A stretch of 64,000 nucleotides of DNA from Prevotella sp. (GCA_017557405.1 JAFYYV010000001.1:142079-206078); one strand, 5' to 3'; counted from the stretch's first letter, positions 4,204 to 55,220 are shown. Notes: generated by a model not told the origin, from the sequence alone. Made by a program: numbers and translations.

Positions 4204-4497
4204 GTGTAATCGCTACACGCGAACGAACGAACAGTTGAACAGTTTTTGTGTGTGAAACTGCAATAGAAGATTATTATTATATAATATATAATAATAAAAG
4301 TTTCGCGCACGCAAAAAAGAAAACTGTTCAACTGTTCGTTCGCTGTTCGTTCTCATATCCATCTTCTTTGTGGAAAAAAAGAAGCGTTGTCAAAGACCAT
4401 CTTTGACCTTGTCATTTGTGGTCTTTGATCTCCTCATTGCATAGCTTTGACCGTGTCATTGATGGTCTTTGACAACGTCATTTGTGGCCTTTGACAA
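4204..4497 (+). repeat. Composite intergenic element, copy 1: long imperfect hairpin (4220-4342) plus five tandem 22-bp units (4389-4495)
   Basis: Arm CGAACGAACGAACAGTTGAACAGTTT (4220-4245) is complementary to AAACTGTTCAACTGTTCGTTCG (4321-4342). The apex is a 12-bp A/T palindrome with a 3-nt loop (4271-4297). A near-identical copy lies at 18364-18655. Confidence 0.85.
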
Positions 4498-18363: not shown

Positions 18364-18655
18364 GTGTAATATTTACACGCGAACGAACAGTTGAACAGTT
18401 TGTGTGTGTGAAACTGCAATGGAAGGTTATTATTATATTAAATATAATAATAAAAGTCTTGCGCACGTGAAAAAGAAAACTGTTCAACTGTTCGTTTGTT
18501 CGCTGTTCGTTCACATACCCCTATTCTTTTTGAAACAAGTGGCGTTGTCATTGATAATCTTTGACCTTGTCATTTGTGGCTTTTGACCTCGTCATTGCAT
18601 AGCTTTGACCGTGTCATTGATGGCCTTTGACAACGCCATTTGTGGTCTTTGACAA
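18364..18655 (+). repeat. Composite intergenic element, copy 2: long hairpin (18380-18496) plus five tandem 22-bp units (18547-18653)
   Basis: Collinear with 4204-4497, with scattered substitutions and small indels. Same arm, apex and unit order. The apex arms are conserved while the 3-nt loop differs (TAA vs AAT). Confidence 0.85.
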
Positions 18656-18788: not shown

Positions 18789-20696
18789 ATGACATTCAAT
18801 TACGATGTGATTATAATCGGCGGCGGCCATGCTGGATGCGAGGCTGCAGCGGCATCTGCACGCATGGGAGCGAAGACATGTCTCATCACAATGGACATGA
18901 ACAAAATTGCCCAAATGTCGTGCAATCCTGCTGTTGGAGGCATCGCCAAAGGACAGATGGTGCGCGAAATCGATGCATTGGGCGGCGAAATGGGTCGCGT
19001 GACCGATGCTACTGCTATACAATTCCGTATGCTCAACCGAGGGAAAGGTCCTGCTGTGTGGAGCCCAAGAGCACAATGCGACCGCGGAAAATTCATCTGG
19101 AAATGGCGCGAGACCCTCGATGGAATCGATAATTTGTTTATTTGGCAAGATCAAGCCGATGAACTATTGGTTGAACAAGGCGAGGTGGTCGGAGTGCGCA
19201 CCATTTGGGGAGCTGAGTTTCACGCCAAAAGTGTGGTTGTGACGGCTGGCACTTTCCTCAACGGACTCCTTCATGTAGGTCGTAAAATGGTGCCAGGAGG
19301 ACGTTGTGCAGAACCCGCGGTGCCCCATTTCACCGAGAGTATCACACGACATGGTGTCCGCTCGGCTCGAATGAAAACAGGTACGCCTGTACGTATCGAC
19401 CGCAGAAGCGTTCATTTCGAGGACATGGAGATACAACCTGGCGAAGCCGACTTCCATCAATTCAGCTACTATGCACCTCATCGACAGCTGCAACAATTGC
19501 CTTGCTGGACTTGCAATACCAATGCCGAGGTTCACGAAACGCTACGTTCGGGATTGGCCGATTCGCCCTTGTATAATGGACAAATACAGAGCATCGGACC
19601 TCGTTATTGCCCTTCTATCGAGACAAAACTGGTCACTTTCCCCGACCGAGAGCAACATCCGCTATTCTTGGAACCAGAGGGCGAAAACACGAACGAGATG
19701 TACCTGAATGGTTTCTCGTCGAGTATGCCGATGGATGTGCAACTAATGGCGTTGAGAAAGATTCCTGCACTTCGCGATGTACAAATCTATCGTCCTGGCT
19801 ATGCTATTGAATACGATTTCTTCGATCCCACCCAACTCGACCATTCATTGCAATCGAAAGTGGTGCGCGGCTTGTTCATGGCTGGTCAGGTAAACGGTAC
19901 AACAGGATATGAAGAGGCTGCTGGACAAGGTTTGGTGGCAGGTGTGAATGCCGCTCTCTATAGTCAATCCATCTCTTCTGCAATAAATGACGATTCCATC
20001 GCCACGCCATCTTCGTTCACTTTGGCTCGCGATGAAGCCTATATTGGCGTATTGATTGACGACCTAGTGACAAAAGGTGTCGATGAACCCTACAGAATGT
20101 TTACGTCTCGAGCCGAATATCGCATACTGCTACGACAGGATGATGCTGATGCCCGACTTACCGAACGAGCCTATGAACTCGGATTGGTAAGTCGCGAACG
20201 ATATGATTGGTGGATGGAGAAGAAGGAAATGGTCGATAGAATCATTCATTTCTGCGAAAACACTCCCGTTAAACCAAGCGCCATCAATGGTGCTTTGGAG
20301 GCTCTTGGTACCACTCCCCTGCGGTTTGGTTGCAAGGTCGCTGACTTGATTGCCCGTCCACAACTGACCATGCAGAACTTAGCTGACATGCTCCCAAAGC
20401 TGAAAGAATTACTGAATTCACCGAAAAACCGCAAGGAAGAGATAGCAGAAGCAGCCGAAATAAAGATAAAATACAAAGGCTATATCGAACGCGAAAAAAT
20501 GGTTGCAGAGAAAATGCACCGGTTGGAGAACATCAAAATAAAAGGACGTTTCAACTATTCGGAGTTGCATGAAATCTCAACCGAAGGAAGACAGAAACTG
20601 GAAAGAATCCAACCAGAAACCTTAGCTCAAGCAAGTCGGATTCCAGGTGTTTCTCCTTCCGACATCAACGTGCTGCTCGTCTTGCTTGGTCGCTGA
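18789..20696 (+). CDS. mnmG: tRNA uridine 5-carboxymethylaminomethyl modification enzyme MnmG (GidA)
   Basis: FAD motif DVIIIGGGHAGCEAA; CNPAVGGIAKGQMVREIDALGG; full-length collinear GidA architecture. Confidence 0.97.
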   Translation: MTFNYDVIIIGGGHAGCEAAAASARMGAKTCLITMDMNKIAQMSCNPAVGGIAKGQMVREIDALGGEMGRVTDATAIQFRMLNRGKGPAVWSPRAQCDRGKFIWKWRETLDGIDNLFIWQDQADELLVEQGEVVGVRTIWGAEFHAKSVVVTAGTFLNGLLHVGRKMVPGGRCAEPAVPHFTESITRHGVRSARMKTGTPVRIDRRSVHFEDMEIQPGEADFHQFSYYAPHRQLQQLPCWTCNTNAEVHETLRSGLADSPLYNGQIQSIGPRYCPSIETKLVTFPDREQHPLFLEPEGENTNEMYLNGFSSSMPMDVQLMALRKIPALRDVQIYRPGYAIEYDFFDPTQLDHSLQSKVVRGLFMAGQVNGTTGYEEAAGQGLVAGVNAALYSQSISSAINDDSIATPSSFTLARDEAYIGVLIDDLVTKGVDEPYRMFTSRAEYRILLRQDDADARLTERAYELGLVSRERYDWWMEKKEMVDRIIHFCENTPVKPSAINGALEALGTTPLRFGCKVADLIARPQLTMQNLADMLPKLKELLNSPKNRKEEIAEAAEIKIKYKGYIEREKMVAEKMHRLENIKIKGRFNYSELHEISTEGRQKLERIQPETLAQASRIPGVSPSDINVLLVLLGR

Positions 20697-42774: not shown

Positions 42775-42832
42775 GCGTTATTGTTTGTAAAAGTAGAATA
42801 GTGTCTGCACATCAGCATAGCTGATTCGGTTG

Positions 42833-42840
42833 CAAAGATA
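42833..42840 (-). promoter_or_regulatory. -7 promoter box TAtcTTTG for the pectate lyase gene
   Basis: The reverse complement of CAAAGATA, about 58 nt upstream of the ATG at 42774. Confidence 0.5.
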
Positions 42841-43004
42841 CAAATTAAAATGAGAAATGAAAATTTTATGCAAAAAAAATATGACGAAAGCGTAAAAAAG
42901 AAAGATGAAAGCATCCCAGCAGACGAACTATTAACAGGAAAAAGACACTCTCTGTAGACAACCAAAACAGGAAAGAAACACCCAAGCCCAAGAAGACGAA
43001 CCGG

Positions 43005-43238
43005 GAATGACAAATGACAAAATGACAAATGACAATAAGGTACCTTACAACATTCCATATATGTAGTAGTGTATATATATTGTATAAATATGTATATATA
43101 GTAATAATATAATTATATAATATTATTATAATATATATAATATATGTTAATATATACTACCCCCCAGCATGCTCCCTAGGCGTTTTCGGCGTTTGCAACC
43201 TATGAACCTTGCTTATTGTCATTTGTCATTTGTCATTC
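43005..43238. repeat. Inverted repeats of ATGACAA heptad runs (43005-43040 / 43207-43238) flanking an ~165-bp segment dominated by A/T palindromes
   Basis: GAATGACAAATGACAAAATGACAAATGACAATAAGG versus CCTTGCTTATTGTCATTTGTCATTTGTCATTC. The core contains TAATAATAT...ATATTATTA. Confidence 0.8.
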
Positions 43239-43251
43239 TGTCATCGGAAGT

Positions 43252-43314
43252 GTCATAGCTATGCAATGACAAGGTCAAAGCTATGCAATGAGCCGCTTAA
43301 AGGCCACAAATGGC
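43252..43314 (-). repeat. Three 22-bp mosaic repeat units (reverse orientation)
   Basis: GTCATAGCTATGCAATGAC, GTCAAAGCTATGCAATGAG, CTTAAAGGCCACAAATGGC at 22-bp spacing. Confidence 0.75.
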
Positions 43315-43713
43315 GTGATGAAAGAGCATCTCTGACAAATCATGTGAAAAAACATCAGAAAAAGTGTGTTCGCGAAGGGTAAAAAAACAATATTTTGGAA
43401 GCAAAAAATCGCAATTCCCTGAACTTTTTTTCTCACGAACGCAAAAATCATGATGAAAATGCCAAACTTGAAAAATTGGAGTTGTGAACGAATGTTAATC
43501 ATTAAAGTTAACAAATGTAAATAATCAAAGACAGAAGAGTGAATAAAAATTGAGATAAAACCGAAACAAAATGGTTGCAATTCGTGCAGAGTGGGATGCA
43601 ATTGGAAGAAAATGCGGTATTTTTCGCTGAATTTCGCTTGATTTGAACTAAAAACTCACACGCGAGAATGCAAATTTATTTGTATTCTCTTCGTTTATCA
43701 CATTTTTTTGCAC

Positions 43714-43721
43714 TACCTTTG
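43714..43721 (+). promoter_or_regulatory. -7 promoter box TAccTTTG for leuS
   Basis: TAnnTTTG match 29 nt upstream of the ATG at 43751. Confidence 0.55.
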
Positions 43722-43750
43722 CAGCCAAATACACAATATTAAATAGAATC

Positions 43751-52730: not shown

Positions 52731-53720
52731 CTAAGAGAGTTCCAGCATTCGATTAATGGACTTCACGGCTTCTTTAGCCACCTCTTCATCAACCTCTACT
52801 GTCGGCCATTCATATTTCAAAGTATTGTAGATTTTCTGAAGAGAATTCATCTTCATATATTCACATTCGTTGCATTGACAACCAATGCTTCCTTCGCTGA
52901 TTTCTGGTGGAACAGGATAGAAAGCAGTATCGGGACATGAACGTTGCATTTCATGCAAAATACCCGATTCTGTGGCCACTATATATTCATTCTCTGGATG
53001 CTCTTGTGCATATTTCAACATCACAGCTGTTGAACCCACCACATCAGCCAAAGCCAATACAGGACCTTTGCACTCCAAATGAGCCATTACAATCGCATCA
53101 GGATGTTCTTCCATCAATTTCACAATCTCAGCCACCGAGAAACGTTCATGAACATGACAACCTCCCTGCCAAAGAAGCATCTCACGACCTGTTACAGAAT
53201 TGATATAGGAACCCAAATTATAGTCAGGGCCAAAGATGATTTTTGCATCTTCAGGGAATGAATCGATGATTTTCTTGGCATTTCCACTTGTAACTACCAC
53301 ATCTGTCAATGCTTTCACGGCAGCTGTGGTATTCACATAGCTCACCACCTGATAACCAGGATGCTCTTCTTTGAACTTCTTCAAATCCTCAGCCTTGCAT
53401 GAATCAGCCAACGAACAACCAGCATTCAAATCAGGAGCCAATACAGTCTTCTCTGGTGAAAGTATCTTACAAGTCTCAGCCATGAAGTGAACACCACACA
53501 TGACCATCATCTTCGCATCTGTCTCAGCAGCTTTGCGAGCCAAAGCCAACGAGTCGCCCACAAAGTCGGCAATGTCTTGTATATCGCCAATGGTATAATA
53601 GTGAGCCAATATGATGGCATCTTTTTCCTCACACATACGGCGAATCTCGGCTTTTACATCAATGTCTTCAGGTAGAGGCTCATCTATATAACCTTTTTCA
53701 ATCCATTCTTTTTTCAACAT
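52731..53720 (-). CDS. nadA: Quinolinate synthase
   Basis: NadA type motifs ILAHYY, VMCGVHFMAET, three-fold repeat layout, and C-terminal cysteine pattern. Confidence 0.93.
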   Translation of the reverse strand: MLKKEWIEKGYIDEPLPEDIDVKAEIRRMCEEKDAIILAHYYTIGDIQDIADFVGDSLALARKAAETDAKMMVMCGVHFMAETCKILSPEKTVLAPDLNAGCSLADSCKAEDLKKFKEEHPGYQVVSYVNTTAAVKALTDVVVTSGNAKKIIDSFPEDAKIIFGPDYNLGSYINSVTGREMLLWQGGCHVHERFSVAEIVKLMEEHPDAIVMAHLECKGPVLALADVVGSTAVMLKYAQEHPENEYIVATESGILHEMQRSCPDTAFYPVPPEISEGSIGCQCNECEYMKMNSLQKIYNTLKYEWPTVEVDEEVAKEAVKSINRMLELS

Positions 53721-53849
53721 CGTTTATTTATTCTTTTATTTTAATTTTAAATTTATAAAAAATACAATCAGAACAAGAAGTGCTGTGAATTGGTTTAAAA
53801 CTTTTTCTCACTTTTCTTGCTTGTTTCATTATCAACCCGTGGTTTTGTA

Positions 53850-54115
53850 TTATTCACAATGACTGTTAATTTTTTTTTGTTGACTATCAATAGAATAAAT
53901 ACTTTATCCACAATTCTGCATTTCGGTGCAAATATAATAAGTTTATATCTTTTTTCGTCATGTTTTAGTGGAAAACTTGCAAAAAAGTCAATAAAAACTA
54001 TGTGGAAATCCACCTTTCGGATGGTTGGAAATTGTTTTGTGTGATTATTCACAAAGTTTTCCACATAGTTATTAACATCATTTTCCACAATTATTTGGAT
54101 GAATATCGTGAATAA
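53850..54115 (+). promoter_or_regulatory. Cluster of DnaA-box-like 9-mers (five TTWTNCACA matches in one orientation plus three 8/9 matches on the other strand)
   Basis: TTATTCACA 53850, TTATCCACA 53904, TTATTCACA 54045, TTTTCCACA 54057, TTTTCCACA 54081. The opposite strand has 8/9 matches at 53967, 54001 and 54107. An A/T-pure tract lies at 53721-53780. Confidence 0.55.
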
Positions 54116-54119
54116 ATAG

Positions 54120-54127
54120 TATTTTTG
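54120..54127 (+). promoter_or_regulatory. -7 promoter box TAttTTTG for the peptidase gene
   Basis: TAnnTTTG match 19 nt upstream of the ATG at 54147. Confidence 0.5.
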
Positions 54128-54146
54128 CAAACATAAAGAGATTGTC

Positions 54147-55220
54147 ATGAGAAAATCGATTTCATACATATTCGTGTTGATCATATTGCTTTGTTCCTGT
54201 CGGCAACAACCGACAGAGCACAAACGTATGATGTTCAAAGATGAGGTTCGATTGAAAACCACTCCTATCCAGAATCAAGGAAAAAGTCAATTATGTTGGA
54301 TTTATGCGATGCTAGGTACAATTGAGACCGAACATTTGATGCAAGGAGATTCTGTGGTATTGTCAACTGATTATGTAACTCGAATGTTTTTATTGGAACA
54401 AGCTCGTCAACGCTATTTGATGAGAACCAAAAATAGTCAGAATTCGAAAAATGAAAACATCTCTATGCGTGGTATGATGCCAATGACTATACATCTGTTG
54501 GAACAATATGGAATAGAACCAATGGCAAGTTATCATGCACCTGACAATATCAATTATGGTGTTATAGGTCGCAAAATAGATCAAATTATAAATGTGGCTT
54601 TGACTCGAAGAGTAGGTTTGAAGAACCTTGAACAACAAGTGAATGACTTGTTGGATACTTCAATAGATTATATGCCACAATTTGTTTTCATGCTTGGAGC
54701 TGAATATACACCATTGGAGTTTGCTCATAGTGTTTGTCAGAAAGATGAATATGAAGCATATACATCGTTCACACATCATCCTTTTGGCACATCTTTTGTA
54801 TTAGAGGTAGCTGACAATCAAATGAATGATAGTTTTATGAATGTGCCTCTGGATACATTGATTAATCGAATTGATAGTTCTCTTCAATCAGGTCATCCTG
54901 TTTGTTGGGAGGGAGATACCAGTGAACCAGGTTTCTCTTTTAGAAATGGTGTAGCTCAATTGGATTCTATCCAACAAGTTTCGATGAAATCTATAAAAAA
55001 TGAAGAAATCCAGACATTACGCCAACTACAATTCGAGCAATTTAAGACAACAGATGATCATTGTATGGTGCTTGTAGGAATCGCTCGTGATGAAAAAAAC
55101 GAAAAATATTATATAGCGAAGAATTCGTGGGGAAAGAATAATGTATTTGGTGGTTTTATGTATTTGTCAGAATATTATGTGAAGTTGAAAACCATTGCTG
55201 TAATATTGAGAAGGGAATGA
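54147..55220 (+). CDS. Papain-like (C1 family) cysteine peptidase lipoprotein
   Basis: Lipobox LLCSC. Catalytic Cys context NQGKSQLCWIYA; His/Asn context DHCMVLVG...KNSWG. Confidence 0.65.
   Translation: MRKSISYIFVLIILLCSCRQQPTEHKRMMFKDEVRLKTTPIQNQGKSQLCWIYAMLGTIETEHLMQGDSVVLSTDYVTRMFLLEQARQRYLMRTKNSQNSKNENISMRGMMPMTIHLLEQYGIEPMASYHAPDNINYGVIGRKIDQIINVALTRRVGLKNLEQQVNDLLDTSIDYMPQFVFMLGAEYTPLEFAHSVCQKDEYEAYTSFTHHPFGTSFVLEVADNQMNDSFMNVPLDTLINRIDSSLQSGHPVCWEGDTSEPGFSFRNGVAQLDSIQQVSMKSIKNEEIQTLRQLQFEQFKTTDDHCMVLVGIARDEKNEKYYIAKNSWGKNNVFGGFMYLSEYYVKLKTIAVILRRE

Follow-up and report, generated by a model that had tools for sequence, protein, structure and literature searches.

A conserved DnaA-box cluster upstream of nadA is the probable chromosomal replication origin of an uncultured rumen Prevotellaceae bacterium

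Results

The gap between nadA and a C1-like peptidase gene

In the 64-kb stretch of Prevotella DNA analysed here (the window), a 426-bp gap of 26.5% GC separates two divergent genes. On its left lies nadA, encoding quinolinate synthase (52731-53720, minus strand; Pfam PF02445, E = 3e-119), the conserved neighbour of the proposed origin. On its right lies a gene for a C1-like peptidase (54147-55220, plus strand). The gene coordinates agree with an earlier reading of the sequence alone (the sequence-only reading), in which both genes point away from the gap. The peptidase frame opens with an ATG at 54147 (357 aa), and the public gene call places the start at 54231 (329 aa); the choice of start sets the length of the gap at 426 or 510 bp, respectively. 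A plus-strand TAnnTTTG sequence, TATTTTTG (54120-54127), is the likely promoter of the peptidase gene, as a motif match only.

An identical NadA is encoded on a 304.5-kb metagenome scaffold (ENA ERZ28654131). By NadA, the closest genomes are those of uncultured rumen Prevotellaceae, at 95% and 87% identity; many Prevotella and Segatella species follow at 78-82% identity, including four complete S. copri chromosomes. The window itself contains no dnaA gene, as the sequence-only reading had stated: a DnaA signature is absent from the six-frame translation of the window, and dnaA is absent among the 30 of ~42 predicted window genes that were scanned against Pfam. Among the genes of the window, neither dnaA, dnaN nor gidA adjoins the cluster of DnaA boxes described below. 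The gidA/mnmG gene (18789-20696), a classical origin neighbour in many bacteria, is 33 kb away from this cluster, and the gap upstream of it has no box cluster.

DnaA boxes in the gap

The gap holds five exact matches to the DnaA-box pattern TTWTNCACA, all on the plus strand, beginning at 53850, 53904, 54045, 54057 and 54081. The same five had been listed beforehand, with coordinates and sequences that are all correct. The box at 53904-53912 is TTATCCACA, the perfect E. coli consensus, as had also been recognised. Three minus-strand 8/9 matches reported with them are present as well: TTTTCCACT at 53967-53975, ATTTCCACA at 54001-54009 and TTATTCACG at 54107-54115, the last in a part of the gap that is unconserved in relatives. 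In total, 426 bp of non-coding DNA carry 5 exact and ~7 weaker boxes. When boxes with up to one mismatch are counted, the 64 kb reach their highest density per 300 bp here.

Exact matches to TTWTNCACA number 8 in the whole window, against 7.7 expected. Five of them fall within 240 bp (53850-54089), and the remaining 63.6 kb hold three. Under a Poisson model with the background rate, five or more boxes in the 426-bp gap have a probability of 2.7e-11. When the gap was shuffled 20,000 times with its dinucleotides preserved, five boxes never arose (mean 0.18, maximum 4), which upholds the earlier statement that five boxes in ~240 bp are far beyond chance.

A sixth plus-strand box, TTATTAACA at 54069-54077, completes a run of four with a period of exactly 12 bp. 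In this head-to-tail array (54045-54089), the boxes at 54045, 54057, 54069 and 54081 read TTATTCACA, TTTTCCACA, TTATTAACA and TTTTCCACA, and the counterpart in relatives is a set of tandem boxes, ~12 bp apart, at -368/-356/-344 from the nadA ATG. Nearer to nadA, exact matching and alignment identify TTATTCACA at 53850-53858 as a conserved box at -138 and the perfect box at 53904-53912 as a near-invariant box at -192. In relatives, the -192 box is almost always TTATCCACA or TTATCAACA, and the sequence TGTGGATAA at this box is nearly invariant across 20 aligned sequences. Two poorer matches are conserved in position: the weak plus-strand box TTATCAACC (53829-53837), where relatives have GTGGATAAC at about -117, and the DnaA-box-like TTTTCCACT on the minus strand, where relatives have TTTTCCAC at about -254.

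Two of the boxes are also paired in an inverted repeat (53996-54070), whose arms are AACTATGTGGAAAT (53996-54009) and TTTTCCACATAGTT (54057-54070). Each arm contains one DnaA box, and the cores of the 14-bp repeat are the opposed boxes at 54001-54009 (minus) and 54057-54065 (plus). The S. copri counterpart has arms of ~20 bp, TAATAACTTTGTGGATATCC and GGATATCCACAGGGTTATTA. In the window, a small GC-rich hairpin sits between the two arms. The repeat recurs in L018, L016, L023 and other related loci at about -330 to -270 from nadA, and its spacer of ~40 bp often has a small GC-rich hairpin of its own, with a sequence that differs between species. The whole window gave no match to Rfam at gathering thresholds. 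A permissive Rfam scan of the gap placed AdoCbl-II on the inverted repeat with 19 bits against 36.5 (E = 0.12), a sub-threshold score that we take as chance.

A candidate unwinding module and an A/T tract next to nadA

The left edge of the gap had been described as almost pure A/T and similar to an unwinding element. This tract (53721-53771) runs to the nadA start codon and has 45 A/T in 50 positions. At -48.5 kcal/mol (mean -68.6 +/- 4.7), it is less stable than all but one 50-mer of the 64 kb, and an A/T tract occupies the same position in all 20 aligned relatives. We consider it a candidate DNA-unwinding element (DUE).

On the side away from nadA, nine consecutive NAN triplets that resemble DnaA-trios can be read directly from the plus strand at 53754-53780. 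From the box outward, 3'->5', they are GAA GAA CAA GAC TAA CAT AAA AAA TAT; the trios of relatives at that position are TAG TAG TAG GAA TAT TAG. A 3-bp spacer, GCA on the minus strand (53781-53783), separates them from a proximal box; in published modules this spacer, or gap region, is 4 bp long on average. The proximal box belongs to a degenerate minus-strand 9+8 pair (53784-53800) made up of TTTTAAACC (53792-53800) and then AATTCACA (53784-53791), which aligns with TTATCCAC-TTATCCACG of S. copri and with TTATCAAC-CAATTCACA of L003, the closest relative.

This arrangement can be compared with the published search rule for a basal unwinding system (BUS), which calls for a box with at most two mismatches (or a pair with at most two and at most four), a spacer no longer than 16 bp, three or more NAN trios and an A/T tract. 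The spacer of 3 bp, the nine trios and the A/T tract of the window all fall within the rule. The proximal boxes TTTTAAACC and AATTCACA have 4 and 3 mismatches to TTATCCACA, one more than the rule allows, and the 9-mer CAATTCACA has 2 when position 5 is counted as N. L003 and S. copri satisfy the rule. The entries for E. coli and B. subtilis in Table S1 of Pelliciari et al. (2021) served to check the geometry of the module; there, the trios lie 3' of the box 5'-TTATCCACA-3' on the complementary strand (PMC8287927). The order on the nadA side of the window, box pair, spacer, trios and A/T tract, is the published one.

Elsewhere in the gap, a weaker alternative module at 53850-53880 has a box and five NTN triplets, a T9 run among them, set apart by a 4-bp spacer. 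A module to the right of the last plus-strand box (54089 onward) was rejected, as no run of at least three NTN triplets occurs within 16 bp.

Other unstable segments of the window were seen in the course of this analysis. The least stable 50-mer is part of an almost pure (TA)-rich tract at 43041-43143 (49/50 A/T), which has no DnaA boxes nearby and lies in a 1-kb gap (42775-43750) 5' of a gene for a 955-aa class-I aminoacyl-tRNA synthetase. Two near-identical A/T-rich palindromes of ~50 bp, at 4254-4304 and 18410-18460, are also among the least stable segments. With the consensus GAAACTGCAATrGAAGrTTATTATTATAT...AATAATAAAAGTyTy, they resemble copies of a dispersed repeat or of a terminator-like element common to both sites.

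A predicted promoter among the boxes

The longest run of invariant columns in our alignment of 20 sequences (A1) is a near-invariant block at 53926-53956, GAAAAAAGATATAAACTTATTATATTTGCAC on the minus strand (also written GAAAAAAGATATAAACTTATTAnnTTTGCAC and GATATAAACTTATTAnnTTTGCAC). The block contains TAnnTTTG, the Bacteroidota-type -7 promoter motif (Bacteroides promoter consensus), on the minus strand at plus coordinates 53929-53936, facing the boxes, the DUE and nadA. The near-invariant TGTGGATAA lies ~15-25 bp downstream of the block, and no other canonical -7 motif occurs between the block and nadA. Judged from its sequence, this block is probably the nadA promoter, and the transcript, with a predicted start near 53920 on the minus strand, would probably run over both the -192 and the -138 box and then over the unwinding module and the DUE before it enters nadA. 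A scan for sigma-70 promoters and terminators, which does not cover Bacteroidota promoters, returned nothing above shuffles.

Conservation across Prevotella and Segatella

The sequence-only reading had proposed to look for the box cluster in the orthologous gap of related genomes, and there it is conserved. Our informative loci were the 77 related Prevotella and Segatella loci that include sequence upstream of nadA. In 72 of them, the 400 bp directly upstream of nadA are richer in boxes (at most one mismatch) than any other 400 bp of the ~21-kb locus. The boxes stand at fixed offsets from the nadA ATG: -380, -368/-356/-344, -328, -290, -192, -138 and -81/-73, where the -81/-73 boxes are an abutting pair on the other strand in the S. 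copri group. The shared architecture comprises the phased tandem array, the near-invariant TGTGGATAA, the nadA-proximal pair, the NAN trios and the A/T tract. The gene on the far side is not conserved; a C1 peptidase adjoins the gap only in L001-L003, that is, in the window's own genome and in L003. Since the peptidase gene is not syntenic, we take nadA and the non-coding region as the unit that is kept together.

In alignment A1, the gap breaks up into box-sized conserved blocks and variable spacers with indels, which is not how a coding region is conserved. This bears on a gene call in the public assembly, a 129-aa frame on the minus strand (53795-54184; 9537-9926 in L001) that spans the whole box cluster. 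The call carries no Pfam hit, and the frame is not kept open in relatives, which show only shorter frames of varying strand and frame. Given the lack of a Pfam hit, the shorter frames of relatives and the box-sized conserved blocks with indels, we reject this frame as a gene; it is most likely spurious.

A homologous element has been catalogued as an origin on a complete genome. A BUS was predicted for P. ruminicola 23 (DoriC ORI93030288, 3,065,774-3,065,819; Pelliciari et al., 2021, NAR 49:7525, Table S1, PMC8287927) as 3'-AATAGTTCT ATAAGTGC CGTA TAG TAT GAT GAA TAA GAT AAA AAT-5'. We searched its complement against every nadA locus. Of the 40 loci that matched best, the great majority have their top hit 78-83 bp upstream of the nadA ATG, and the closest hits of all are in L063 and L064, with 6 and 7 mismatches in 45. 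Because the P. ruminicola BUS maps upstream of nadA in this group, the gap there corresponds to what Ori-Finder/DoriC designates as the chromosomal origin in a complete Prevotella genome.

Some loci depart from the common pattern in position or in label. In L009 and L012, the densest box cluster is ~0.9-1.3 kb upstream of nadA, ~1 kb farther than elsewhere, and L009 has three copies of TTATCCACA at -1081/-970/-960. An insertion may have entered the origin in these two loci, or the displaced boxes may form a second cluster. Seven contigs binned as Firmicutes (L012, L016, L030, L040, L043, L049 and L066; the bins are Subdoligranulum, Waltera, Acutalibacteraceae, Lachnospiraceae, Clostridia, Oribacterium and Firmicutes CAG:103) have the oriC architecture described above together with a nadA of Prevotella type (80-82% identity), and are probably Segatella or Prevotella contigs placed in the wrong bins.

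Strand composition around the gap

GC skew changes sign across the gap, from -0.19 (52-54 kb) to +0.17 (54-56 kb). We followed the skew over 73.5 kb, comprising the 64-kb window and a further 9.5 kb of the contig on its right. The cumulative G-C minimum of this region is at 53924, inside the gap. From left to right the skew turns from negative to positive, which is the polarity of an origin as opposed to a terminus. We also regressed skew at third codon positions (GC3) on gene strand and side, comparing all breakpoints between genes. After this correction for strand, the gap outperforms every other single breakpoint, again with origin polarity (coefficients of +0.08 for side and -0.12 for strand), and the positive skew persists over minus-strand genes at 58.3-62.6 kb.

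The sequence-only reading had expected the skew minimum to coincide with the gap. The minimum and its origin polarity stand within the 73.5 kb; a lasting positive domain to the right does not, as it fades after ~12 kb. Five plus-strand genes beyond the window (12685-20382 of L083, equal to window coordinates 65798-73495) have GC3 skews of -0.04 to -0.30, and from these negative values beyond 65.8 kb we take the strongly positive domain right of the gap to be only ~12 kb long. A model with a block at 54.2-63 kb explains 41% of the variance, compared with 22% for a single switch. Such a short domain could stem from a rearrangement close to the origin or from genes that are atypical locally. Skew to the left of the gap averages only -0.02, and of the coding length in the 73.5 kb only ~35% is co-oriented with forks leaving the gap.

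We also located the cumulative-skew minimum of each locus in 49 full-length relatives. In 23 of them, it lies between -700 and +100 of the nadA ATG, compared with ~1.9 expected under uniform placement; in the other 26, the local minimum is not at the gap. The strand-composition evidence for an origin is supportive, not decisive.

Discussion

The gap between nadA and the C1 peptidase gene is very probably the DnaA-dependent chromosomal oriC of an uncultured rumen Prevotellaceae bacterium. This was the leading proposal of the sequence-only reading, which also placed an unwinding element at the A/T-rich left edge, and it gains support from the conservation of the box positions, from homology to the P. 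ruminicola BUS, from the geometry of the module and from the skew. The element is an ortholog of the origin catalogued computationally for P. ruminicola and has the standard design of DnaA boxes, trios and DUE.

We infer DnaA binding, a site of unwinding and promoter activity at the gap, and on this basis initiation might proceed as follows. DnaA would occupy the strong plus-strand boxes at 53904, 53850, 54045, 54057 and 54081, together with the weaker conserved sites, and would oligomerise on the 12-bp phased array. From the proximal pair (53784-53800, minus strand), a DnaA filament would extend onto the plus-strand NAN triplets at 53754-53780 and melt the A/T tract at 53721-53771, where the helicase would be loaded for bidirectional replication. 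The predicted promoter at 53926-53956 (minus strand) would read into nadA by way of the -192 box, the -138 box and the unwinding site. Since this embedded promoter would transcribe through the origin, origin firing and nadA expression may affect each other.

One could carry this idea further and envision a Prevotellaceae origin that is built into the nadA leader. The invariant promoter inside oriC would read through two strong boxes, the module and the DUE into nadA, so that DnaA gates the expression of NAD biosynthesis and the promoter, in turn, opens or occludes the origin. In the lineage of the window, where the boxes adjacent to the trios have decayed, unwinding may require DnaA from the distal, 12-bp phased, one-orientation array in place of the canonical proximal pair. 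We offer this combined model as a speculation that is rather unlikely to hold.

The promoter also suggests a simpler alternative, in which DnaA acts only as a transcription factor on the nadA promoter at 53926-53956 and the locus is not an origin. The transcript from the near-invariant TAnnTTTG block would start just upstream of the perfect box at 53904-53912, TGTGGATAA follows ~15-25 bp downstream, and the sequence up to nadA has no further canonical -7 motif, all of which fits such regulation. One operator would do for this purpose, however, and we see ~12 conserved box positions over 300 bp, along with a phased array, a BUS-like module and a low-stability tract. In addition, the cumulative-skew minimum is in the gap, and the homologous element is catalogued as the oriC of P. 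ruminicola. We therefore think it improbable that regulation is the only function of the locus. Regulation by DnaA is compatible with origin function, and both regulation and titration of DnaA remain minor rivals or additional roles.

Somewhat less probable still is a DnaA titration or reactivation locus in the manner of E. coli datA or DARS, with the true origin elsewhere. High-affinity boxes are dense here, with no adjacent dnaA, dnaN or gidA, and the skew evidence is local only. Against this, datA- and DARS-type sites can do without an unwinding element or trios and would not be expected to sit at a skew minimum, and the gap has all three. Moreover, in a complete genome, the region homologous to the gap is the one that Ori-Finder/DoriC called as origin. 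The missing linkage to dnaA, dnaN and gidA does not count against oriC, since a large distance between origin and dnaA is regarded as usual in Bacteroidetes (PMC4755523). Lastly, although the gap is A/T-rich, as is the box pattern, and the window-wide number of matches is as expected, an artefact of composition giving rise to TTWTNCACA-like words, or a set of sites for an unrelated factor, is effectively refuted by the shuffles, none of which reached the observed count, and by box positions that stay in place, between diverging spacers, in species with NadA identities of 78-95%.

A Prevotella oriC does not change the understanding of how origins work. Its location on a metagenome-assembled contig does provide an anchor for growth-rate estimates from coverage (peak-to-trough ratio), and it helps to orient or rotate assemblies and to build oriC-based vectors for poorly tractable Prevotella and Segatella. 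The linkage of oriC to nadA, the fixed offsets, the embedded promoter and the paired inverted boxes offer a map for a first experimental dissection of a Bacteroidota origin. The embedded conserved promoter, the oriC-nadA linkage and the decay of the trio-proximal boxes in the lineage of the window are features that may be worth experiment. In the literature, we found nothing specific on oriC-nadA linkage or on DnaA-trios in Bacteroidota.

The closest known system is the origin of P. ruminicola 23, itself a computational prediction in DoriC. The two elements are homologous, and the window aligns over the whole gap to the loci that match the P. ruminicola BUS. They share the order of a 9+8 box pair, a 3-4 bp spacer, NAN trios and an A/T tract. 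In the window and L003, by contrast, the proximal boxes and trios have diverged: the window has TTTTAAACC/AATTCACA where P. ruminicola has TTATCAAGA/TATTCACG, and trios of the GAA/CAA type in place of TAG/TAT/GAT. An ungapped comparison with the P. ruminicola BUS gives 24 mismatches in 45, a rough upper bound, as it is anchored one base off the box register. The rows for melaninogenica, denticola and intermedia in Table S1 of the same study list different BUS strings, for which no relation to the window locus was established. A separate prediction exists for chromosome 1 of P. intermedia OMA14, where an oriC of ~476 bp (1,498,452-1,498,927) has multiple DnaA boxes and a GC-skew transition and lies far from dnaA, a distance that its authors call usual in Bacteroidetes (PMC4755523). 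By description and not by sequence, its size and logic match those of the 426-bp gap.

Beyond the Bacteroidota, the module resembles the basal unwinding system at incC of B. subtilis (Richardson et al., 2016, 2019; PMC6669920), which likewise combines a tandem 9+8 pair (AATAGGTGT-TTAGGTGT, 3'->5', in B. subtilis), a short spacer, NAN trios and an A/T-rich tract, and which also has distal boxes that are able to act at a distance. B. subtilis differs in its consensus-grade proximal boxes, its GAT-type trios and its place between dnaA and dnaN, whereas the window has weak proximal boxes, trios of the GAA/CAA type and nadA as its neighbour. With the oriC of E. coli, the gap shares arrays of boxes in opposed orientations and a DUE beside a terminal box (the E. 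coli trios are TAG GAT TAT); unlike it, the gap has no GATC clusters, and its array has a period of 12 bp. The E. coli origin is flanked by the promoters of gidA and mioC, and transcription from them modulates initiation. In the window, the predicted promoter lies inside the origin itself and would read through the DUE.
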